Positions 779 to 26,761 are shown, numbered from the stretch's first letter. The stretch: DNA of 64,000 nucleotides from an uncultured delta proteobacterium (GCA_963831555.1 CAWHQT010000020.1:12099-76098); one strand, 5' to 3'. Translations and numbers: made by a program. Notes: generated by a model from the letters alone, not told the origin.

Positions 779-1876
<1,098 letters not shown>

Positions 1877-1915: not shown

Positions 1916-2734
1916 CTACGGGCCGCCCGCGGGCGGCCCGACGCAAACGCCTCCTCCACTTTCGGACGTGTGCGGGCAGTGCGTGGCCGTGTCGGCAAAC
2001 AGGACCGCGTTCTCGAGGTGATACATGCGGCAGTTGAGCGTATTGCCGGAGCTATAGGCGAGGTCACTCTCCGCGGCGACGTCAACCTGCTCCAGGTAAG
2101 GGAATCCCGCGGTACCGCCATCCGCTCCCGCGTCCGAGCCACGGCACGCGGAGAGGCAATCGTCCATGCCTCCCGGGTATGCGATCGTGCCGCAGATCTG
2201 CAGGTCCAGCGTGCAAAACGGCGTGCACGGATCGCTTCCCATCGGGTTGCAATACGTCCCGCCGAGGGGGCCCGCGTGGGGGCAATGAATGTGGGTTTCC
2301 AACGTTTGATTATGGAACGCGGCCTCGAGAGCGGCGTTCGCATGCCATACGCGGCAGCTGAGCGTATCCGTGGAGGGCGCTGGGGCGGTCGGGTCAGCGG
2401 GGCCCCCGGGCTCGAAGAACGGACAGATGGCGGAGCACACTCCGGCGTCGGATCCCATCGCGAGCCCTTGCAAATACTCGAGATTGGTACTTCCGCAGGC
2501 CATCGTCACGAGGTTGCAATAGTTGTCGCACGTGACGTCGTAGTTGATCGGTGGCCCCGCCTCGGAGTTCCCTGCTCCAACGCCCGCGCCGCCTTCTCCA
2601 GCGTCCCGAGGGGCGCCGCTTTCTGCCGGCTCGAGGGTGGCCGGGTCGATTCCGAAGATAGAATTGCATGCGAGAAGTGCGCAGCATCCGAGCGCGAGGG
2701 CGCCCGCTCCCGCGGAGAAGACGATTCGCACCAT
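1916..2734 (-). CDS. Cys/His-rich lipoprotein with a two-fold internal repeat (candidate metal-binding)
   Basis: The start is the internal ATG at 2734-2732 of the 551-aa track ORF. The N-terminus MVRIVFSAGAGALALGCCALLAC is a signal peptide plus lipobox. The start overlaps the upstream stop as TAATG. Two repeats each end in C-R-x-(W/Y)-H...T-H-C-P-H-x4-5-G-G-x2-C. Confidence 0.7.
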   Translation of the reverse strand: MVRIVFSAGAGALALGCCALLACNSIFGIDPATLEPAESGAPRDAGEGGAGVGAGNSEAGPPINYDVTCDNYCNLVTMACGSTNLEYLQGLAMGSDAGVCSAICPFFEPGGPADPTAPAPSTDTLSCRVWHANAALEAAFHNQTLETHIHCPHAGPLGGTYCNPMGSDPCTPFCTLDLQICGTIAYPGGMDDCLSACRGSDAGADGGTAGFPYLEQVDVAAESDLAYSSGNTLNCRMYHLENAVLFADTATHCPHTSESGGGVCVGPPAGGP

Positions 2735-3795
2735 TACCAAGCTCCCTTGAGCGCCGCGCCGCCGAGAGTCGGCATGAGAACGAGGGTCGTGGCGTTGCCC
2801 GTTTCTCGGTTCTTCGTGCCCCCGGGGGCGGTCAGCCACAGCGCCACGCCCCCCACGATCGCGGCGCCGCCTACGACGAAAGCCACCGTGGCGATGTCCC
2901 CCGCGGAACGGGCGTCGGAACGTTCGTCGAGGCCCGGCTGCGAGCAAACATTTTGATTCGGCGCGGCTTCGCAGTCGTGATCGACCGAATCGTTGTACTT
3001 GTTCTTCGCGAGGACGAGGAAGCCCGCGCCAATCGCCACGCCCGCGACGCCGAGCCCCGACACGACCCAGCCCGCGATGCGTTGCGCGGATCCCGATCCT
3101 ACGGGGTTCGGGGCGGATGGGGTCGCGGGCTCTGCACCGACGGACGCCACCGGCGCGGCCGGACCGGCCGGAGCTCCCGGGGCCGGCGCCGTCGTGGCCG
3201 CCATTTCGACGGGAGCCGCCTCGAGCGGGGGCACCGTGGCGATGACCTGCGCTCCGTTCTGGGGGACCTCCACGACGGCGGACCAGTCCTTGTGGCCGGG
3301 AGCCGAGGCGCTGAGAGTGTGGCTTCCCGGGTCGATCGGGATGGCAATGGCCCACTCGGCGCGGTCCACGTTCACGCCGTCGCGGCGCACCTGGATGCCA
3401 TCGATGGGCGCGCCGACATTGATTGTCAGTCGCGCCAGCGTCGGCGCGAGGGAGTCCGCGTGCCGTTCGGCGGCCGTCACATAATCTTTGCGTCCGGCGG
3501 CGTTCGCGGAGCTCGCCGCCTCTTTGTACGTGGCCCACGCGGTGGCCGCACGGCCGAGTTTCTCCCAGCAATTAGCAAGGTTGAGGAGCGTCGCCGCGGA
3601 GGGGTCGAGCCGCTCGCTGTCGGCGAATTTCGGACACGCGTCGGCGTATTTCTTGTCCGCGACGAGCTTGCGCCCGTCTTCGAACAGCGCTTCCGCCGTC
3701 ACCTTGTCGCTCTCGGTCCCTTGGGCCTGGGCATCCGCGGTCGCAAGGGCAATTGTCGTCGCGAGCACCGCCGCCGAACAGTTGGCGAAACGCAT
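2734..3795 (-). CDS. Secreted membrane-anchored protein: signal peptide, helical TPR-like N-domain with conserved Cys, PEGA-like beta-sandwich, Ala/Pro linker, two C-terminal TM segments
   Basis: 353-aa ORF. The signal peptide ends ATADAQAQG. The beta-domain is LTINVGAPIDGIQVRRDGVNV...GSHTLSASAPGHKDW. TM1 is IAGWVVSGLGVAGVAIGAGFLVL and TM2 is VAFVVGGAAIVGGVALWL. The architecture matches the ORF at 24543..25511. Confidence 0.7.
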   Translation of the reverse strand: MRFANCSAAVLATTIALATADAQAQGTESDKVTAEALFEDGRKLVADKKYADACPKFADSERLDPSAATLLNLANCWEKLGRAATAWATYKEAASSANAAGRKDYVTAAERHADSLAPTLARLTINVGAPIDGIQVRRDGVNVDRAEWAIAIPIDPGSHTLSASAPGHKDWSAVVEVPQNGAQVIATVPPLEAAPVEMAATTAPAPGAPAGPAAPVASVGAEPATPSAPNPVGSGSAQRIAGWVVSGLGVAGVAIGAGFLVLAKNKYNDSVDHDCEAAPNQNVCSQPGLDERSDARSAGDIATVAFVVGGAAIVGGVALWLTAPGGTKNRETGNATTLVLMPTLGGAALKGAW

Positions 3796-3819
3796 GACCT
3801 CGTGTCTACCCGAAGGCGC

Positions 3820-5280
3820 TCATCGAAGGGCAGGAATGTCGTCATCCGGAATGGGCGGCCGGCTGTTGCCTGGCGTTCGGCCAGGCGCTGGGCCGCTTGG
3901 CGGCGCCCAGTGAACGACGGGCCTCGGCGGTGGGGGCGGCGCCTCGTGTTTCGCGGAGCTTGCCTCGGCACGTGCCGGTTCGGAGGGCGAGGTAGCGACG
4001 GGCTCTGGAAGTGCCACGATCGACGCCGTAGGGAGGATATCCGCTTGCATCGCGACCAGTGAATGTACGGCCGGCGGCAAGGCTGCGGCGCTCATCGGGG
4101 CGCTCTCCGTCGTCAGCGACGCGGCGGCTCCTACGCGTGCGCTCCGCCGTGCGAGAAGCACCCCGCTCGCGACCGTGGCTCCGATGAGCAGAGCGGCGAC
4201 AAGAGGTACGGCCAAGCGCGAGCGGCGCCGCTCGACCAAGGGTCCGGCGGGCGCTCCGCCCCACGCCGAAGGGGTTGGGCCCGACGCGACCGGAGAAGAC
4301 TCGGCACTTGGTAAGGTGGGCCTCGCGATATCCACCGGCTGGCTCGAGGTGGGCGCTGCGATGAGCGTCGTCCGAGGGCGGTCGGCGGCCACACGCGACA
4401 TCAACGGCGGAGCGAAGGGTTCGAGCGCAGCGGCTAGCTCCGTCGCGTTCGCGTAGCGCCCCGCCGGCTCTTTCGCGAGGCATCGCTGGATGACCGCCAC
4501 GACCCCCGGGGGTACGTCGGACCGAAACTCGCTCAGCGGTCGGGGCGCCTCCGTCACCACCTTGAGGCAAAGCTCGGGCATACTCTCCGCCTCGAAGGGC
4601 CAACGTCGCGTGAGAAGCTCGAAGAGCACGACTCCCAAGGCCCACACGTCGACCCGCGCGTCGACGTCTCGCGAGGAGCGCATTTGCTCGGGCGCCATGT
4701 AAAGGGGCGATCCGAGCATGGCGCGTGTGCGGGTTAGCGCTCCCAGGCCGTCTTTGGTCAGACCGATCGCTTTGGAGACGCCGAAGTCCAGGACCTTCAG
4801 CCGCGGCGACCCCGAAAACGTGCGCGTGAGAAACAGATTCTGCGGTTTAAGGTCGCGGTGCACGATGCCCGCTGCGTGCGCCTCGGCCACAGCCTCGCAC
4901 GCCTGAAGAAGCAAGAGCAATGCTGCGTCGAGCGCCATCGGCCCGCTCTCGTTCAGGACATGCCCGAGATCGTTGCCGTCGAGAAACTCCATGACCATGT
5001 ACGGTGCGCCGGAGTCGAGCTTTCCGACGTCGAGCACCTTCGCCACGTGCTCGCTGCGTAGGTTGACCGCGGCGCGCGCTTCGCGGAGAAACCGCTCGAC
5101 CGTATCGCCCTGCTCGAGCGCTTCGTCGCGGACGAGCTTGATGGCCACGAGCTGACCCAGTTGCTCATGCCGGGCGGCGACGACGACGCCCATGCCGCCC
5201 GACCCAATCACCCGCTCGACCCGGTACTTGCCGGCGAGTAGGTCGCCCTCGCGGACGGGGAGCGCACCAGTTTGACCCAT
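3820..5280 (-). CDS. Ser/Thr protein kinase with one TM segment and a Pro-rich extracytoplasmic tail
   Basis: The start is taken at ATG 5280-5278 (MGQTGALPVREGDLLAGKYRVERVIGSGGMGVV). Motifs VAIKLV, HRDLKPQN, DFG and LYMAPE are present. The TM is LAVPLVAALLIGATVASGVLLA. The longer 769-aa track ORF adds an Arg-rich, non-coding-looking N-terminus. Confidence 0.9.
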   Translation of the reverse strand: MGQTGALPVREGDLLAGKYRVERVIGSGGMGVVVAARHEQLGQLVAIKLVRDEALEQGDTVERFLREARAAVNLRSEHVAKVLDVGKLDSGAPYMVMEFLDGNDLGHVLNESGPMALDAALLLLLQACEAVAEAHAAGIVHRDLKPQNLFLTRTFSGSPRLKVLDFGVSKAIGLTKDGLGALTRTRAMLGSPLYMAPEQMRSSRDVDARVDVWALGVVLFELLTRRWPFEAESMPELCLKVVTEAPRPLSEFRSDVPPGVVAVIQRCLAKEPAGRYANATELAAALEPFAPPLMSRVAADRPRTTLIAAPTSSQPVDIARPTLPSAESSPVASGPTPSAWGGAPAGPLVERRRSRLAVPLVAALLIGATVASGVLLARRSARVGAAASLTTESAPMSAAALPPAVHSLVAMQADILPTASIVALPEPVATSPSEPARAEASSAKHEAPPPPPRPVVHWAPPSGPAPGRTPGNSRPPIPDDDIPALR

Positions 5281-6261: not shown

Positions 6262-7974
6262 ATGCAAAGTACACATCGAGTCAATCAACCGTCCAAGCCC
6301 ACGGACCCGATGCTCAATCGCGTCATCGCCGGGCGATATCGCCTGGAAGCGCGGATTGGCGAAGGCGGAATGGGCGTTGTTTACCGTGCGCGGCACGTCC
6401 TCATCGACCGCGTCGTCGCCGTCAAATTGATTCGCCCGGACCTGCGCGGCGAAACCCATTTGCGCGCGTGGATGCTTCGGGAAGCGAGGGCCGCCAACCG
6501 GGTGGACCACGCGCACATCATCGACATCCACGACATCGGCGAGACGGAAGACAGCGAACTCTACCTGGTGATGGAGTACCTGGTCGGGACGTCGCTCTCG
6601 AGCGAGCTCGCGCGTGGATCGATGCCTCTCGCGCGGAGCGTCGACATCCTCGAACAGATGTGCGCCGCGCTCGCCCGCGCACACGATCTGGGCGTCGTGC
6701 ACCGCGATCTCAAGAGCGACAACATCTTGCTGACGACGCGCGGCGGCAGGAAAGACTTCGTCAAGATTTTGGACTTCGGCTTGGCGCACCTCGCGATGGA
6801 TCCTCGGCTCGCGCCGAAAGGTGCCGTCTTCGGAACGCCCGAATACATGTCGCCCGAGCAGGCCAGGGGAGAGGAGGCCACGGCGCAGAGCGATCTGTAT
6901 GCGCTCGGCGTTCTCTTCTTCGAGATGCTGACCGGCCAGCTGCCTTTCCGGAGCGATGACCGCGATACGCTGTTGGAGCTTCAGCGCACGGGCGTCGCCC
7001 CGCGTCCCCGATCCATCAAGCCTGACGTTTTGCCCGCGGCCGAGGCCATCGTCGTAAAGCTTCTGGAGAAAGACAGGCGAAAGCGCTTTCAAGACGCCCA
7101 CCACATGCACGAGGAGCTGAAGTCACTTCAGCGCAGCCTGCCGAGCACTCCGTGGGAGATTGGGACCACGGGCGAGAACGCGGTCCCACCTCCACCACCG
7201 CCTCCGCAGTCGCCTGGCGTCATCGAGTGGGCGAGCCGCGCGGCGCTTTTCTCGCGCATGGTTTCGAGGGCTCACCCCGGAAACAACGCGCCCCCCGATG
7301 TCCAGACCGCAACGTCCCAGGCGTGGGACCTCGCATCGCGGGCCAGCCGGCTCGAGGGAGAAGTCGCGAGCCACACGCGCAAGCTGGAGGCGCTCGAGCG
7401 CAGGGGGAGGGCGCTTCGTGCGGAGATAGGCCGTAAGGTCGAGGAGCTCGCGCACGAGGAGTCGCGCGCCCTCCGCGAGCTGACGGCCGAGCAGCTGGAG
7501 GTGACGCGGCTCCGCGAATCCACGCAGCAGGCAGAGCGCAACGCCGGGCAGGCCAAGCAAGCCGCCGACGGCGCCAGCGGTTCGGGGGCGCAATTGCGCG
7601 TGACCTTCGAACGGTCGGGTGCGGCGGCTGCGCTGGTCGAGGCGAGGCGCGAGCAGCTGAAGAACCATGAGCAGCGCGCCGTGCAAAAAGAGGCGCAGGC
7701 ACGGGACCTTCGCCGCCAAATCGAGGAGCTCCGTGCCCAGCTGGCGCGCTACGCCGAAGCCCTCGAAGAGGATCTCTCGAGCGGACGCGAGAAGGTGGCG
7801 GGGCGCACGCGCGAAGGGATCGCATATGAGAAGGCGTTCAGCGAGGTGTCCGTCCTCCTTTTGAACCACCTGAAGACGAAGCCCGAGGCGCGCGATCTGC
7901 TCCAGGAGCTGGTCGCCGTGATGCACGGCCAGACCTACAACTCACCGGCGAAATCGGAGAGCAAGATTCCCTAG
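6262..7974 (+). CDS. Ser/Thr protein kinase with a long C-terminal coiled-coil region
   Basis: Motifs GEGGMGVVYRA, VAVKLI, HRDLKSDN, DFG and EYMSPE are present. The C-terminal ~250 aa is rich in E/R/L/A heptad-like sequence. An alternative start is the internal MLNRVIAG. Confidence 0.9.
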   Translation: MQSTHRVNQPSKPTDPMLNRVIAGRYRLEARIGEGGMGVVYRARHVLIDRVVAVKLIRPDLRGETHLRAWMLREARAANRVDHAHIIDIHDIGETEDSELYLVMEYLVGTSLSSELARGSMPLARSVDILEQMCAALARAHDLGVVHRDLKSDNILLTTRGGRKDFVKILDFGLAHLAMDPRLAPKGAVFGTPEYMSPEQARGEEATAQSDLYALGVLFFEMLTGQLPFRSDDRDTLLELQRTGVAPRPRSIKPDVLPAAEAIVVKLLEKDRRKRFQDAHHMHEELKSLQRSLPSTPWEIGTTGENAVPPPPPPPQSPGVIEWASRAALFSRMVSRAHPGNNAPPDVQTATSQAWDLASRASRLEGEVASHTRKLEALERRGRALRAEIGRKVEELAHEESRALRELTAEQLEVTRLRESTQQAERNAGQAKQAADGASGSGAQLRVTFERSGAAAALVEARREQLKNHEQRAVQKEAQARDLRRQIEELRAQLARYAEALEEDLSSGREKVAGRTREGIAYEKAFSEVSVLLLNHLKTKPEARDLLQELVAVMHGQTYNSPAKSESKIP

Positions 7975-15370: not shown

Positions 15371-16708
15371 TCACATTCGGCTGATCAGCCAGCCGAGCGC
15401 GAGACCCACGGCGAGGGCGCACGCGACGAAGAGGACGACGACCTTGGGAGCGACGCCAAGCCGCGGGAGCGGCCTTCCGCTCGAGGCGAGTTCGCTCACC
15501 TCCTGTGTCTTGGAGGGCAACGTTCCCCCGAAGCGTTGGGGATCCACCAAGAGAACTTGCGGTACGGGGTCAATGACGACGGCCGCTTGCGGGCTCGCGA
15601 GCGTGCCGCCTTTTCCGCCGGCCGGTGGCTGCAATGGCCGCACGTCCAATTTCTCGTTGATGGTCGGGGGGATGGGCGAGTCCACGACGCCACGCCGGTT
15701 GACCGCCGAGGCGACGGGCACCTCGCGTCCCGCCTCCTCGGGCCCCGGGCGCGCGCCCTTCGTCGCTCTCGCCGACGCATCGGGGGTTGGGCTCGCGCGG
15801 GCACCCGCCCCCCGTTCCGCGCGAAGCGCGCCCGCCGGTAACGCCGCGGTGAGCGCTCGCGTCATTTCGTTCGCGGACTGAAACCGCTCCTCGCGGTTCT
15901 TCCGGAGAGCGCGTTCGAGGAACGGCGCGAGGGGTGCGAGCGCAGGATCGATACGATCGATGGGCTCCGGCTCGGTCGACAGCAGGGCGGCGAGACGGGC
16001 GTATTCCGTGGGAGCGGGGAACGCCACGCGCCCGCTGAGCATCTCGTAAAAGAGCACGCCGACACTCCAAAGGTCCGCCCGCTGGTCCACGTCACGCGCG
16101 CTCCGCGCCTGCTCGGGGCTCATGTACGCGGGGGTCCCGAGCAGTACCCCGGTGCGCGTTCGGTTCCCCATCCCGCCGGCCGCATCCATCACTTTGGCGA
16201 TGCCGAAATCGACCAGCTTGACCACGAACGCTCCGCGCGGGTCGCGGGTGAGGATGACGTTGTCCGGCTTGAGGTCGCGATGGACGATTCCGCTCTTGTG
16301 GGCGGCGGCGAGGGCCGCCAAAATCGCCTGAACGATGGGCGCGGCTTGCGCCACGGCAATGCGAGCCCCGTTTTGCATGTACGCGCCGAGCGGCACCCCG
16401 TCCAAGAGCTCCATGACGATGAAGGGGGACTCGTCCTCGGCGCGCGCGCACTCCATGACGCGCACGATGTTCGGGTGCACGAGGCGCATGCAGGTGCGTG
16501 CCTCTTCCAGAAACCGGGACCGAATATCTGGATCGCCGACGAATTCTTTTCGAAGCACTTTCACCGCCGCGTGGGTGCTCCCGTCTACGGCTTCCGCGGC
16601 GTAGACTTCCCCCATCCCTCCCTCTCCAAGCTTGCGCACGAGCCTCCATCGGCGCGCGAGGATCGCACCGACGACGGAGTTGGAGACACCTACGAGCGGA
16701 ACTACCAT
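15371..16708 (-). CDS. Ser/Thr protein kinase with a C-terminal TM anchor
   Basis: Motifs GEGGMGEVYAA, AVKVL, HRDLKPDN, DFG and AYMSPE are present. The C-terminal segment VVVLFVACALAVGLALGWLI is the anchor. Confidence 0.9.
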   Translation of the reverse strand: MVVPLVGVSNSVVGAILARRWRLVRKLGEGGMGEVYAAEAVDGSTHAAVKVLRKEFVGDPDIRSRFLEEARTCMRLVHPNIVRVMECARAEDESPFIVMELLDGVPLGAYMQNGARIAVAQAAPIVQAILAALAAAHKSGIVHRDLKPDNVILTRDPRGAFVVKLVDFGIAKVMDAAGGMGNRTRTGVLLGTPAYMSPEQARSARDVDQRADLWSVGVLFYEMLSGRVAFPAPTEYARLAALLSTEPEPIDRIDPALAPLAPFLERALRKNREERFQSANEMTRALTAALPAGALRAERGAGARASPTPDASARATKGARPGPEEAGREVPVASAVNRRGVVDSPIPPTINEKLDVRPLQPPAGGKGGTLASPQAAVVIDPVPQVLLVDPQRFGGTLPSKTQEVSELASSGRPLPRLGVAPKVVVLFVACALAVGLALGWLISRM

Positions 16709-22920: not shown

Positions 22921-24504
22921 ATGGCTGCACCTTTACAGCCCCCCGCCCCTCCCCGAATCGTCGGAAGGTACGTCCTTTATGGCGAGATTGCGTCGGGCGG
23001 TATGGCCACGGTGCATTTCGGGCGCCTTTTGGGCCCTGCGGGGTTTTCGCGCCCAGTGGCGATCAAGCGCCTCCACGCTCAGTTCGCGCGCGACCCGGAT
23101 TTCGTGAAGATGTTCTTCGACGAGGCGCGCCTCGCCGCCCGAATCGCGCATACGAACGTCGTCGCCACGCTCGATGTCGTGTCCGCGGACGACGAGGTGT
23201 TTCTGGTGATGGAATACGTGCCCGGGACCTCGCTCGCGCAGCTCGTCCGAACGGCCCGGCGTCGCGGCGAACCCATCGCGGCGCTGGTGGGCGTCGGCGT
23301 CGTGAGCGGAATGCTCCACGGGCTTCACGCGGCTCATGAGGCACGAAACGATCGGGGCGAGCGACTCGACATCGTGCACCGCGACGTATCGCCGCAAAAC
23401 GTTTTGGTGGGCACGGACGGGATCCCGCGTCTCCTGGACTTCGGCGTCGCCAAGGCATCTGGCCGGCTTCAAACGACGCGAGACGGTCAGCTCAAGGGCA
23501 AGCTCGCGTATATGGCCCCCGAGCAGGTGCGCGGCGAGCCCCTCACGCGCCGAACGGACGTCTACGCCGCTTCGGTCGTGCTTTGGGAGGTGCTGACCGG
23601 AAAGCGCCTCTTCTACGCCGAAAACGAGGCAACGGTTCTGTCGCGCGTGCTAACGGCAGAAGTCCTTCCGCCGAGCACCATCATCCCGGAGCTTCCCCGG
23701 TCTCTCGATCGCGTGGTTCTGCAGGGCCTCGAGCGCGATCCCGACAAGCGCTATCCCACCGCGCGCGCAATGGCGGCCGATCTCGAGGCGTGCATCGGCT
23801 TGGCGTCGGCCGCCGAGATCGCCGATTGGGTGGAACACACCGCGGCAGAGGAGTTGCGCGAGCGCGCCCTGCACATCGCGGAGATCGAGCGGTCAGCCGC
23901 TGAAGCCGCCGAGGGCGGCACGGGCGCGCCGGCCGTCACCCAGAGCGGGCCGGCGACGTTGGGTCGGCACCCCCAAGACTCCTCGGGTACCTGGGGCAAT
24001 TCCCTGCCGACCCGGAACGAACGGATTCATCACGAGCTGTCGCAGCTATCGAACCTGTCTCTGGCGCGCGCGAGCGAGCCGCCCGCGCGTCCGTCGCGCA
24101 AGCTGGTGTCGGCCCTCGTGGCTTTCGCGGGCGCGATCCTCGTCGTCGTCGCGCTGCTTCTCTTCGCGCAGGCACACTCCAAGGTCGAGTCGGGCCGGTT
24201 CGAGTCGACCCGGCTCGAGTCAGGCGCCGGTCTGCAGACGAGCCAGTTGCCGCCGCCCGTCAAAGTAACGACGCCGCCGTCCGTCGAGGTCCCGCCGAGT
24301 ACGAACGTCAACGATCTCCCGGTCGCATCGCCCCTGCCCGATGCTTCGATGTCGACCGCGACGCCCGGTCTACCGCCTCCGCGACCGCAATGGCGCGCGT
24401 CTCCGCAGCCTGTGTGGCCGGCGGCAACGGCAAGCGAAGAATGTAATCCGCCCTACACTGCAGACGCAAAGGGACACATTCACTTCAAACCGAATTGTAT
24501 GTGA
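22921..24504 (+). CDS. Ser/Thr protein kinase with a TM segment and a Cys-containing extracytoplasmic tail
   Basis: Motifs SGGMATVHFG, VAIKRL, HRDVSPQN, DFG and AYMAPE are present. The TM is LVSALVAFAGAILVVVALLLFA. The C-terminus is ECNPPYTADAKGHIHFKPNCM. Confidence 0.9.
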   Translation: MAAPLQPPAPPRIVGRYVLYGEIASGGMATVHFGRLLGPAGFSRPVAIKRLHAQFARDPDFVKMFFDEARLAARIAHTNVVATLDVVSADDEVFLVMEYVPGTSLAQLVRTARRRGEPIAALVGVGVVSGMLHGLHAAHEARNDRGERLDIVHRDVSPQNVLVGTDGIPRLLDFGVAKASGRLQTTRDGQLKGKLAYMAPEQVRGEPLTRRTDVYAASVVLWEVLTGKRLFYAENEATVLSRVLTAEVLPPSTIIPELPRSLDRVVLQGLERDPDKRYPTARAMAADLEACIGLASAAEIADWVEHTAAEELRERALHIAEIERSAAEAAEGGTGAPAVTQSGPATLGRHPQDSSGTWGNSLPTRNERIHHELSQLSNLSLARASEPPARPSRKLVSALVAFAGAILVVVALLLFAQAHSKVESGRFESTRLESGAGLQTSQLPPPVKVTTPPSVEVPPSTNVNDLPVASPLPDASMSTATPGLPPPRPQWRASPQPVWPAATASEECNPPYTADAKGHIHFKPNCM

Positions 24505-24542: not shown

Positions 24543-25511
24543 ATGCTTACGTGTCGGCCAAACATGCGGCGAAACCGGGCGCGCAGCGCTGTTATCGGAG
24601 CTGCGTTACTCGGCGTTCCCGTCGCTGCTGGCGCGGGCGAGAGAACGAGCGACAAGCAGAACTGCATTGCGGCCGCGGAACAGGGCCAGAGCCAGCGGGA
24701 CGACGGGCAGTACAGAGCGGCGAGGGACGCGTTCGTTAAGTGCACCGACGACGTGTGCCCGCGCGTGATCGTTCAGTCGTGTACGAAGTGGCTCCGTGAG
24801 CTCGATGAGAGCGCCCCGACCATCGTCCTTGGTGCCAAAGACGAGCAGGGCAACGACCTCACGGACGCGACCGTGTCGTTCGACGGCGTGCCGTTCTCGA
24901 CGACTCTCACGGGCAAGCCGGTGGAGGTGGATGCGGGCGAACACGTTGTGCGCTTCGAACGCCAGGGAAGGATTGCCGTCGAGCAGAGGCTGCTTTTGCG
25001 CGCGGGCGAAAAGGCGCGCGTCGTGAGCGTGACGCTCCTGCCCGTGGCGGGACCCGAAGCCGACGCGGCGTCCTCGGACGCGTCCGCGGTGCAGGGGATC
25101 CAGGGAGGTGCCCTGCCTGCGCCCGCCGAACGGACTTTATCCGCGCACCATGTCGCGGCAGGAGCCATTGGTCTGGGCGCTGTCGCGGCGGCGGTGGTCG
25201 GGGTGGTCTTCGTTCTCAAGTCCAACGCGAAGCAAGACGATGCGGCCGGGTTACGCGGCACGCTCCCGGCGGACGGATGCACGGGCGTGTCGTCTCCGAT
25301 GTGCGCGTCGCTGAGCGACGCCGTCCACGCGCAGCATGACGACATGAACGTGGCCGGGGGGCTCTTCGCGGTTGCGGGGGCCCTCGCCGCCGGCGCGTTA
25401 GCGGCGTGGGTCTTCTGGCCCAGGGCGGCCAGCGCATCTCCGGCGACCACCGGCTGGATTGGGCCGATCCGCGGGGGCGCCGCGGTTCAAGTGACCGGCG
25501 TCTTCCGATGA
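24543..25511 (+). CDS. Secreted membrane-anchored TPR-like/PEGA-like protein, an architectural paralog of 2734..3795
   Basis: It has a signal peptide and a Cys-containing helical N-domain (NCIAAAEQG...KCTDDVCPRVIVQSCTKWL). The beta-domain is ATVSFDGVPF...GEHVVRFERQG. Two TM segments flank a Cys loop. An alternative start is at 24564. Confidence 0.7.
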   Translation: MLTCRPNMRRNRARSAVIGAALLGVPVAAGAGERTSDKQNCIAAAEQGQSQRDDGQYRAARDAFVKCTDDVCPRVIVQSCTKWLRELDESAPTIVLGAKDEQGNDLTDATVSFDGVPFSTTLTGKPVEVDAGEHVVRFERQGRIAVEQRLLLRAGEKARVVSVTLLPVAGPEADAASSDASAVQGIQGGALPAPAERTLSAHHVAAGAIGLGAVAAAVVGVVFVLKSNAKQDDAAGLRGTLPADGCTGVSSPMCASLSDAVHAQHDDMNVAGGLFAVAGALAAGALAAWVFWPRAASASPATTGWIGPIRGGAAVQVTGVFR

Positions 25512-26761
25512 AGCCGCTCTCCTTTTCCTCGTTCATCGTGGTGGTGGCGATGAGCGCTGCCTCCCTCGTGGCGAACGGTTGCGGCGGCATCGATTGCACG
25601 GAGACAGCGACCTGCCCAGGCCTTTCCGACGGTTCGTCCGACCAATCCGTGACGGAGGGCGGTGGGGCATCGGGCCAGGACGTGCAGGCCGAACCGCTCA
25701 CGGATGCCAGCGAGGCGGACACGCCATCCAATGCCTCCGACGCGAATGCGACGATGGAAGAAGCAGACGCCGGCGACGGATCGACCGATTCGACCGACGA
25801 GGACGTAGGCACGGATTCCACGTCGATCGCGGACGCGCAGTTCGATGCCCCGGACGCCCGCGGCCCGGACGCCGCACCCCCCACGTGCGCCAACGGATCA
25901 TCGTGTGTGAAGGCAGCCCCCGCGGGGTGGTTCGGGCCCGGCGCGCTGTTCGACGGCGCGTTCACCGCATCGCCGCCTGCATGCGTGGCCCCCTATGGCA
26001 ACAATGCATTCACCCTCAGCGCGATGCCCACGTCTCCAGCGCCAGCTTGCGGATGCGCATGCGGAGGCGTGAACGGCGGCTGCACGAACCCGACCGTCGC
26101 GGTCTACAGCGATAATCAGTGCGGGCCGTCCAATGACTGCGCTTCCGGGGGCGGCGCGGCCTGCACGGCGACCGAAGGTGCGCGTTGCCCGACCGGCGGA
26201 CAATCGGCCAACGTCACTGCTCTACCGCAGGCGACTTCGACGGGTTCGTGCAACGCCAGCGTCACGACGCTGAACACACCGACGCCCCAATGGACCCGGA
26301 CGGGTGAGACCTGTGCGGCGAGCCAAACGTTCACGAGCGCGGGATGCGCATCGGGTTCGGTTTGCGCCCCCGATGCGCCCTCACGATTTCAACCGAAGCT
26401 ATGCGTCTGGAAGGCCATGGCGGCCGATTGCTCGACCCCTGCGCTCTCGGGCTACTCGTTGGTTTATCGTTACTACTCGCGTATGACCGACACGCGCGCG
26501 TGTACGAAGGGTACGTGCGGATGCAACGCTGCGTCGGTCAGCGCCTGCACATTGACCGCCACGGCGTACCGCACGCCGAATTGCTCTTCCGGAGGAACCG
26601 TGCTCGCGAACTCGGGGTGCAGCTTCTCGGGCAATCTCATCGCGGGGCTGACCGCCAGCGTTGTCACCACCGGCTCGTGCGCCCCGAACGGAAGCGCCGG
26701 AACGTCGGGGACGGTGGTGCCCGACAACGCGACCGAATTCACCGTTTGCTGCACGCAGTGA
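25508..26761 (+). CDS. Cys-rich lipoprotein (acidic linker plus two Cys-rich beta-type modules)
   Basis: ATG 25508 overlaps the upstream stop as ATGA. MKPLSFSSFIVVVAMSAASLVANGC gives the lipobox. The internal similarity is ACGCACGG...C...C versus TCGCNAAS...C...C. The C-terminus is FTVCCTQ. Confidence 0.7.
   Translation: MKPLSFSSFIVVVAMSAASLVANGCGGIDCTETATCPGLSDGSSDQSVTEGGGASGQDVQAEPLTDASEADTPSNASDANATMEEADAGDGSTDSTDEDVGTDSTSIADAQFDAPDARGPDAAPPTCANGSSCVKAAPAGWFGPGALFDGAFTASPPACVAPYGNNAFTLSAMPTSPAPACGCACGGVNGGCTNPTVAVYSDNQCGPSNDCASGGGAACTATEGARCPTGGQSANVTALPQATSTGSCNASVTTLNTPTPQWTRTGETCAASQTFTSAGCASGSVCAPDAPSRFQPKLCVWKAMAADCSTPALSGYSLVYRYYSRMTDTRACTKGTCGCNAASVSACTLTATAYRTPNCSSGGTVLANSGCSFSGNLIAGLTASVVTTGSCAPNGSAGTSGTVVPDNATEFTVCCTQ

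Follow-up and report, generated by a model that had tools for sequence, protein, structure and literature searches.

The window analyzed in this work, a stretch of 64,000 nucleotides (nt) from an uncultured delta proteobacterium (C20:12099-76098 of a 5.89-Mb genome with 66% GC), carries two copies of a cassette composed of a Hanks kinase gene, a gene for a secreted middle protein, hereafter referred to as the adaptor, and a gene for a Cys-rich lipoprotein. On balance, we favor the view that this triplet is the unit of a multi-copy, three-part trans-envelope receptor made up of kinase, adaptor and lipoprotein. Relatives of the proteins encoded in the window were found in metagenome-assembled genomes of Polyangiaceae from soil, peat and permafrost.

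Listing of the open reading frames (ORFs) and their translation confirmed six genes, K1, M1 and L1 at locus 1 and K2, M2 and L2 at locus 2 (Table 1). Gene coordinates, spacing and the location of the two loci on opposite strands all agreed with a preliminary description of the sequence: 24 nt lie between the stop codon of K1 and the ATG of M1, and 38 nt between K2 and M2, while the adaptor stop overlaps the lipoprotein start both at locus 1 (TAATG, 2736-2732) and at locus 2 (ATGA, 25508-25511). For M2, an alternative start at the ATG at position 24564 is possible.

Also as previously described, the first gene of both loci encodes a membrane-anchored Hanks kinase. The Pkinase domain (PF00069) was matched by K1 (E 2.6e-46) and K2 (E 3.8e-34) in Pfam, and the VAIK, DFG and APE motifs are intact in both proteins, as are HRDLKPQN in K1 and HRDVSPQN in K2. 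Each kinase has one transmembrane (TM) helix, followed by a low-complexity outer tail of approximately 110 amino acids (aa) that showed no domain match in Pfam. The two loci are diverged and do not stem from a recent duplication, in line with the earlier proposal: the kinase domains of K1 and K2 share 32% identity, similarity between M1 and M2 was not significant by pairwise BLASTP (E 0.63), and L1 and L2, which had been assigned to different Cys-rich types, were unrelated by tblastn and Pfam. Regarding expression, two 151-nt contigs from a soil metatranscriptome (run X6) were identical to K2 coding sequence within positions 23596-23899; these two short contigs constitute weak evidence that K2 is transcribed in situ.

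Within 25 kb at the beginning of the window there are five Hanks kinase genes, at 779-1876(+), 3820-5280(-), 6262-7974(+), 15371-16708(-) and 22921-24504(+), and two of them (K1 and K2) belong to cassettes. The gene at 779-1876, which encodes a 365-aa kinase, is convergent with L1, an arrangement kept in L002.

Table 1. Genes and protein features of the two cassettes; positions are counted from the first nucleotide of the window.
Feature	Residues	Position (nt)	Strand	Remarks
K1, Hanks kinase	486 aa	3820-5280	-	Locus 1
K1 TM helix	356-377	4150-4215	-	Pro/Ala-rich outer tail beyond
K1 C-terminal octapeptide DDDIPALR-COOH		3823-3846	-	Proposed docking peptide for M1 TPR domain
M1, middle protein (adaptor)	353 aa	2734-3795	-	Locus 1
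M1 TPR domain, five helices	27-119	3439-3717	-	AF2, pLDDT ~96
M1 PEGA-like β-sandwich	121-188	3232-3435	-	AF2, pLDDT ~96
M1 Ala/Pro linker, disordered	190-234	3094-3231	-	AF2
M1 helical TM hairpin	235-272 and 286-322	2830-3093	-	AF2, pLDDT ~80; Cys loop at tip
M1 hairpin loop CEAAPNQNVC		2944-2973	-	
M1 C-terminal β-hairpin ending GAW	337-352	2737-2787	-	AF2, low pLDDT
L1, lipoprotein, 19 Cys	272 aa	1916-2734	-	Locus 1
L1 conserved head CNSIFGID		2645-2668	-	Low-complexity linker beyond
L1 Cys/His modules CRxWH...HCPH...GGxxC		2249-2356 and 1943-2032	-	
K2, Hanks kinase	527 aa	22921-24504	+	Locus 2
K2 TM helix	395-416	24103-24168	+	Low-complexity outer tail beyond
K2 C-terminal Cys-bracketed motif CNPPYTADAKGHIHFKPNC		24442-24498	+	Proposed docking loop for M2 Cys-helical N-domain
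M2, middle protein (adaptor)	322 aa	24543-25511	+	Locus 2
M2 four-Cys helical N-domain		24651-24806	+	
M2 β-sandwich		24813-25037	+	Linker beyond
M2 TM1		25146-25217	+	
M2 loop CTGVSSPMC		25278-25304	+	
M2 TM2		25350-25418	+	Followed by C-terminal tail ending GVFR
L2, predicted lipoprotein, 29 Cys	417 aa	25508-26761	+	Locus 2
L2 conserved head CGGIDCTETATC		25580-25615	+	Followed by acidic low-complexity linker and Cys-rich body

Homology and domain architecture of the adaptors

The relationship between the two middle proteins was analyzed with profiles built from alignments of 34 M1 orthologues (A1) and 34 M2 orthologues (A2). Comparison of A1 and A2 by hhalign gave a probability of 98.15% and an E-value of 6.5e-14 over 268 columns, running from the N- to the C-terminus. 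Further, the A2 hidden Markov model (HMM) matched M1 itself (E 3e-6). When all ORFs of the genome were searched with M1 and M2 by phmmer, approximately 29 paralogues were found, and at least six of them matched both M1 (1e-8 to 1e-16) and M2 (1e-17 to 1e-31) over the β-sandwich and the C-terminal half. Judged by these profile comparisons, M1 and M2 are anciently diverged homologues.

Both families share a signal peptide, a helical N-domain with conserved Cys, a β-sandwich, an Ala/Pro linker and two Gly/Ala-rich hydrophobic helices around a loop with two invariant Cys, a layout that had already been outlined for M1 and M2 and was recovered here in the alignments and in an AlphaFold2 (AF2) model of the M1 family. 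They also have in common a W-x-x-x-P motif after the second helix and a C-terminal P-x-x-G-G...G-x-[WF] strand pair. The model obtained from A1 reached a mean predicted local distance difference test score (pLDDT) of 77, with the values for individual domains given in Table 1. In A2, six Cys are invariant (C41, C67, C72, C80, C246 and C254).

The TPR label that the preliminary description had given to both middle proteins held, by sequence, for the M1 type only. The A1 profile matched consensus TPR proteins with E-values from 3e-11 to 1e-8, and TPR_16 was matched by 18 of the 34 M1 orthologues; the M2 type had no TPR match by sequence, its alignment with the TPR region being obtained through hhalign only. 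Foldseek searches with the M1 model retrieved, as the nearest solved folds, the peptide-binding TPR clamps of CHIP, Sgt2 and Hop and transthyretin-like carboxypeptidase domains (E ~3e-3); these were analogues of single domains, and no analogue of the whole protein was retrieved. With regard to the β-sandwich, the PEGA family (PF08308) was hit by M1 at E 0.25 and left M2 unmatched in Pfam. Sub-threshold matches to PEGA or CarboxypepD_reg-like families were recorded for 3-4 of the 34 M1 orthologues and for one of the 34 M2 orthologues, and one distant member of the adaptor family matched PEGA at E 6e-6. In our local Pfam and NCBIfam libraries, no model covers the adaptor family, and of the six cassette proteins just the two kinases receive a family name.

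In four other kinases of the genome, a genuine PEGA domain is found in cis, within the tail of the kinase itself. Since in these kinases PEGA is part of the same chain, PEGA and a kinase of this kind form a natural functional unit, and the adaptor may be viewed as the outer half of such a receptor kinase, split off as a protein of its own. The cassette resembles the PEGA receptor kinases in its catalytic domain, single TM helix and outer region, and in the sandwich of the adaptor, which is possibly PEGA/CarboxypepD_reg-like. It differs from them in that the outer domains lie on a separate, anchored polypeptide, with the kinase keeping a putative docking peptide, as would be expected of a split receptor.

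Recurrence of the cassette in the genome

Members of the adaptor family were counted with the A1 and A2 HMMs as ORFs at E ≤ 1e-5, which yielded 36 adaptor-family ORFs in this genome. In at least 21 cases, a Hanks kinase is encoded on the same strand upstream, with no more than approximately 120 nt between the end of its ORF and the adaptor gene, compared to an expectation of 1.9% (89 kinase ORFs among ~4750 called genes; binomial tail 2e-27). In two more cases the kinase lies just upstream of a longer N-terminal extension of the adaptor, and 2-3 adaptors are accompanied by a divergently oriented kinase. The 21 partner kinases are built alike: the kinase domain is followed by a juxtamembrane segment, then by a single TM helix and finally by a tail of low complexity, 95-167 aa in length. 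The contig of the window also encodes a third kinase–adaptor pair, which lies shortly beyond the window border (C20:463-3088).

Cys-rich lipoproteins are under-called by gene calling, and the ORFs downstream of the adaptors were scanned directly. Approximately 15 adaptor genes are followed by a lipobox ORF starting between -7 and +2 nt from the adaptor stop, and in about 12 of these ORFs Cys makes up 4-13% of the residues. Taken together, the cassette is present at about two dozen loci of this soil myxobacterium, and approximately a quarter of the kinases of this genome are provided with an adaptor and a variable lipoprotein.

Several unusual members were also observed. One of the two adaptors with a longer N-terminal extension is a giant variant of 1453 aa (C16:34148-38509). 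Its C-terminal part is an M1-like module (A1 E 1e-25), and its gene directly follows that of a cassette-type kinase (C16:32462-33925). M1-like proteins that lack the C-terminal module are encoded at C21:185276-186412 (together with the downstream gene) and C4:348494-351432, where they are paired with very large lipoproteins (1207 and 658 aa, 12-13% Cys) with CxxGxC-type repeats.

Kinase C-termini and adaptor subtype

The outer tails of the partner kinases were compared with regard to the adaptor subtype encoded next to them. In approximately 30 genomes, K1 orthologues end in [DN]DDIP[SA][LMIV]R-COOH and the tail before this end is unconserved. Kinases paired with M2-type adaptors carry near their C-terminus a motif bracketed by two Cys, C-x-x-P-[YFW]-x(5-11)-K-x-x-C, which in K2 reads ECNPPYTADAKGHIHFKPNCM; in nine K2 orthologues the last 20 residues are almost invariant and the tail just before them is unalignable. 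In this genome, the Cys motif was present in 12 of 13 kinases beside M2-type adaptors and in none of the 10 beside M1-type adaptors (Fisher p 1e-5), and it was found in no other ORF. At the sole exception (C11), the adaptor has the C-terminal module only. A similar distribution was observed in other genomes, where the motif occurred at 13 of 13 M2-type loci compared to 0 of 7 M1-type loci. As for the remaining M1-type kinases, those of a second subgroup, which includes Labilithrix, end in GGFI[KR]VRE-COOH, and the ends of smaller groups read HG[IV]LSxxR or RxLPNVRN.

In a maximum-likelihood tree of 82 kinase domains, the cassette kinases did not form one clade. Kinases with the Cys motif fell into at least three clades, each with an M1-paired kinase as close sister, and hence the terminal motif tracks the adaptor subtype rather than the descent of the kinase domain. 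At the level of sequence, the last 8-20 residues of the outer tail thus co-vary with the adaptor subtype, which is the pattern expected if the N-domain of the adaptor binds the end of the kinase.

These results also bear on a rival explanation of the cassette, in which secreted proteins and lipoproteins of no common origin are neighbors of kinases by chance and resemble each other in composition. The high density of kinases, with five genes in the 25 kb mentioned above, and the lack of significant BLASTP similarity between M1 and M2 would both fit such a coincidental neighborhood. However, it is refuted by the profile homology of the adaptors, by their adjacency to kinases in this genome and at 49 of 50 M1-type loci elsewhere (see below), by the start/stop overlaps and by the covariation of kinase ends with adaptor subtype, and we attribute practically no probability to it.

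Lipoproteins with a constant head and a variable body

L1 has the lipobox LLAC (accepted under the pattern [LVI][ASTVI][GAS]C) with an invariant Cys23, and the lipobox of L2 (ANGC) is atypical, with GTGC or VQGC in its orthologues. In the alignment of L1 orthologues (A3), Cys and His residues are invariant and the head of the mature protein is nearly so. Precomputed annotation lists PF28386.1 (BfoA_C) for L1 and nearly all its homologues, and our literature search turned up nothing relevant on BfoA. AF2 predicted an all-α fold for L1 (predicted template modeling score 0.72), for which neither Foldseek with the model nor a sequence search against the PDB retrieved a solved analogue; from its sequence, the CRxWH/HCPH motif is a possible metal site. 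L2 matches no Pfam family, and one L2 paralogue adjoins an M2 paralogue at C10:43762-44730. The L2-type head, GC-x-x-x-DC-x-ETATC, is invariant in eight orthologues, with merely 29-40% identity in the body.

Right behind the Cys that is predicted to be lipidated, many cassette lipoproteins share a head of the form C-x-x-[ILV]-[ILF]-G-[ILV]-(x)-D. This motif occurs 10 times in the genome, 8 times immediately after an adaptor gene, and was absent from a reversed-sequence control. Since it accompanies both adaptor subtypes, it probably addresses a part of the adaptor that both have in common. Behind the heads lie long spacers rich in Asp/Ala or in Thr/Gly/Ser and then unrelated bodies, among them Cys-rich repeats (up to 1207 aa) and DPBB/expansin-like, LamG-like and PBP-like domains. 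Within orthologous triads, identity amounted to 51-71% for the kinase, 50-56% for the adaptor and 29-40% for the lipoprotein. The lipoprotein therefore is the variable part of the cassette, as had been suggested, both in its lowest identity between orthologues and in the switch of fold class of its body between paralogous cassettes.

At C13:275607-277687 and C21:60757-63110 we observed two copies of one cassette lipoprotein with identical first ~43 residues; in both, the linker is long, repetitive and rich in Thr/Gly/Ser. Upstream of the C13 copy lies an ORF of 208 aa that combines a kinase fragment with an adaptor C-terminus and looks like a decayed duplicate.

Lys at position +2, which acts as an inner-membrane retention signal in Myxococcus xanthus (PMC3222651), is present in none of the cassette lipoproteins, and anchoring in the outer membrane or at the surface is therefore plausible. 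Together with the fact that some M. xanthus lipoproteins reach the matrix (PMC3222651), this would be compatible with a surface recognition set, in which the lipoproteins are polymorphic surface molecules, used for kin or prey recognition in the manner of TraA, and adaptor and kinase report cell contact. The lipoprotein is also the fastest-evolving component, and many of its paralogues have long low-complexity spacers and Cys-rich repeat bodies. Nevertheless, L1 and L2 orthologues retain invariant Cys/His patterns across genera, which does not correspond to hypervariable alleles, and neither MYXO-CTERM nor PA14-type features of TraA were detected with Pfam. We consider such a role quite improbable.

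Distribution in other genomes

Long contigs from other genomes (L001 and L002) carry the syntenic triad of kinase, M1-like protein and PF28386 protein, and a third contig (L004) encodes a kinase, an M2-like protein and a 438-aa protein in the same order. We then surveyed 59 M1-type loci in GTDB species representatives, 50 of which included enough upstream DNA to be informative. A kinase was located directly upstream at 49 of these 50 loci, and an L1-type lipoprotein head was encoded downstream at 31 loci. The frequency of upstream kinases, like the adjacency within the genome of the window, lies above what kinase density would account for, one of the two points on which the initial proposal of a modular unit had hinged, the other being the homology of the middle proteins. 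Among 15 loci with M2 orthologues, 13 were informative, and 9 of these have a kinase upstream.

Across 151 Myxococcota genomes, the adaptor family is concentrated in the family to which the window belongs, where A1 matched at least 10 and A2 at least 9 of 11 genomes, with up to 15 or more copies per genome; it is present in a few neighboring families and sporadic elsewhere. A search of 1.84 billion cluster representatives (50% identity) with the A2 profile retrieved 12,406 proteins when the threshold was set to E ≤ 1e-3, and 2,575 when it was set to E ≤ 1e-30. The cultured strain Labilithrix luteola DSM 27648 (L093, NZ_CP012333.1:2648193-2656143) likewise has an M1-type cassette, in which the kinase gene immediately precedes that of the adaptor.

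In three or four genomes of Polyangiaceae, the gene immediately preceding the M2-L2 orthologues encodes, in place of the kinase, a cytoplasmic Hsp70/MreB-like ATPase of ~535 aa (L033:1803-3413, L034:1874-3493 and L036:1684-3336, and also L003:4378-5985, with a distance of 15 nt to the start of the adaptor gene). We rejected this gene as a partner of the adaptors in general: its orthologue in the genome of the window (C19:25725-27275) is unlinked to any adaptor, and the association is confined to three related loci.

A model for the cassette and the points against it

In the receptor reading that we favor, the kinase would be bitopic, with its catalytic domain in the cytoplasm, a single TM helix and, on the outer side, an unstructured tail of ~100 aa. 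The adaptor, exported by its signal peptide, would be anchored to the inner membrane through a helical hairpin that resembles a glycine zipper and would display in the periplasm its helical N-domain (a TPR domain in M1, a disulfide-stapled helical hairpin in M2), followed by the PEGA-like sandwich. In the lipoprotein, the conserved head would sit beside the lipid anchor, and a long flexible linker would lead to a globular domain that differs from cassette to cassette and is interchangeable. The adaptor N-domain may capture the C-terminal peptide of its own kinase, which would amount to a subtype-specific docking code, and the part shared by all adaptors (sandwich and/or C-terminal hairpin) may hold the head of the lipoprotein. 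A ligand, or a perturbation of the envelope, acting on the variable domain of the lipoprotein would then change the clustering of adaptor and kinase, and altered clustering would in turn alter trans-autophosphorylation of the kinase.

A more specific version of this model can be put forward tentatively, as possible rather than probable: in Polyangiaceae and neighboring myxobacterial families, the cassettes would form combinatorial plug-in receptors governed by two short linear docking codes, one between kinase end and adaptor N-domain and the other between lipoprotein head and the constant part of the adaptor. Under this version, a linear end (DDDIPxLR, GGFIxVRE) or a disulfide loop (CxPP[YF]...KxxC) would be read by a TPR clamp or by a four-Cys helical hairpin, respectively, and the second code would be carried by heads of the CNxILGID or GCxxDCxETATC type.

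A number of observations weigh against the receptor model. Adaptor–lipoprotein pairs without a kinase were found at C13:116173, C19:15282 and C4:345269, and approximately half of the adaptors have no recognizable lipoprotein downstream. At three M2-orthologue loci, the cytoplasmic Hsp70-like ATPase is encoded upstream in place of the kinase, which therefore is not obligatory. Kinases beside M1-type adaptors have diverse C-termini, which lack the single consensus that one would look for as the ligand of a TPR clamp. Two candidate Rosetta-stone fusions from metagenomes, P0452 (kinase and M2-like) and P0339 (M2-like and L2-like), were rejected as frameshift read-throughs with Arg-rich nonsense linkers; they confirm synteny only. 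Finally, a cleaved signal peptide followed by two TM helices would place the invariant Cys pair in the cytoplasm, where such a pair is less expected than in the periplasm. The Lys/Arg content of the TM1-TM2 loop, examined by eye, fits the cytoplasmic side; since the conserved Cys pair is odd in that compartment, we regard this topology of the adaptor as tentative.

Some of these observations, namely the kinase-less pairs, the replacement by the Hsp70-like ATPase and the position of the Cys pair, keep alive an inside-out reading, in which adaptor and lipoprotein constitute a structural, adhesive or tethering module of the envelope that is regulated by the kinase, for instance through phosphorylation of the cytoplasmic loop of the adaptor. 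The ATPase found in three genomes would point to a cytoplasmic interface, and the TM1-TM2 loop is conserved in A1 and A2, with a nearly invariant Tyr/Ser besides the two invariant Cys. Yet the sole conserved non-catalytic part of the kinase is its predicted periplasmic C-terminus, which co-varies with the adaptor N-domain and argues for a contact in the periplasm, although such a contact would leave the direction of information flow unfixed. We regard this inside-out control as rather unlikely, and retain the trans-envelope receptor as our preferred interpretation.

Comparison with known systems

No description of the cassette was found in the searchable literature on PEGA, kinases, lipoproteins and Myxococcota. 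A functional precedent is provided by the H1 type VI secretion system (H1-T6SS) of Pseudomonas aeruginosa, where a complex of the lipoprotein TagQ and the adaptor TagR has been proposed to dimerize the kinase PpkA (PMC13713981). The cassette resembles this system in having a bitopic Hanks kinase with a periplasmic accessory protein and a lipoprotein encoded nearby, a resemblance that is functional only (PMC13713981). In contrast, there is no homology between the components: TagR is soluble, and M1 and M2 are predicted to be anchored by a TM hairpin and have no comparable Pfam domain. Likewise, PpkA has a folded periplasmic domain, whereas the outer part of K1 and K2 is no more than a disordered tail that ends in the terminal peptide. 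TagQ/TagR(-TagST)-PpkA is a single-copy system dedicated to the T6SS, unlike the cassette with its roughly two dozen paralogous copies and interchangeable lipoproteins.

The possible recognition of kinase ends recalls the TPR clamps of CHIP, Hop and Sgt2, which bind the EEVD end of Hsp70/Hsp90: M1 has a three-repeat TPR domain, and its partner kinases end in short, conserved acidic peptides. It differs from them in being bacterial and periplasmic, in that binding is suggested by covariation only, and in the existence of the M2 subtype, with a putative disulfide-stapled helical domain and a cyclic-looking kinase motif.

The RcsF-IgaA and NlpE-CpxA pairs each couple a signaling protein of the inner membrane to an outer-membrane lipoprotein, which has a flexible linker and reports on the state of the envelope. 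The proposed model shares with them the flexibly linked lipoprotein and signaling across the periplasm to the inner membrane. However, the output of the cassette would be a Hanks kinase and not a His-Asp phosphorelay, the components are unrelated, and the cassette is massively paralogous with variable lipoprotein bodies. Overall, it is a massively paralogous, non-homologous variant of the theme of Hanks kinases controlled by accessory proteins, in which the covariation of kinase C-terminus and adaptor subtype is new.

Significance for kinase signaling in myxobacteria

Myxobacteria have up to hundreds of Hanks kinases, and most of the membrane-bound ones lack a recognizable sensor domain. The cassette most likely provides kinases of this kind with plug-in receptors in the envelope, and it offers a concrete pairing rule between the C-terminal peptide of the kinase and the N-domain of the adaptor. 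If true, the docking codes would account for the way in which cross-talk is avoided among many paralogous kinase pathways: dozens of parallel pathways would be insulated from each other, with new lipoprotein bodies swapped in by gene shuffling. They would also provide parts for the engineering of orthogonal receptors, and the adaptor family, with more than 12,000 clusters at 50% identity, would rank among the largest undescribed classes of bacterial signaling accessory proteins. The presence of the cassette in the cultured L. luteola DSM 27648 makes genetics possible.

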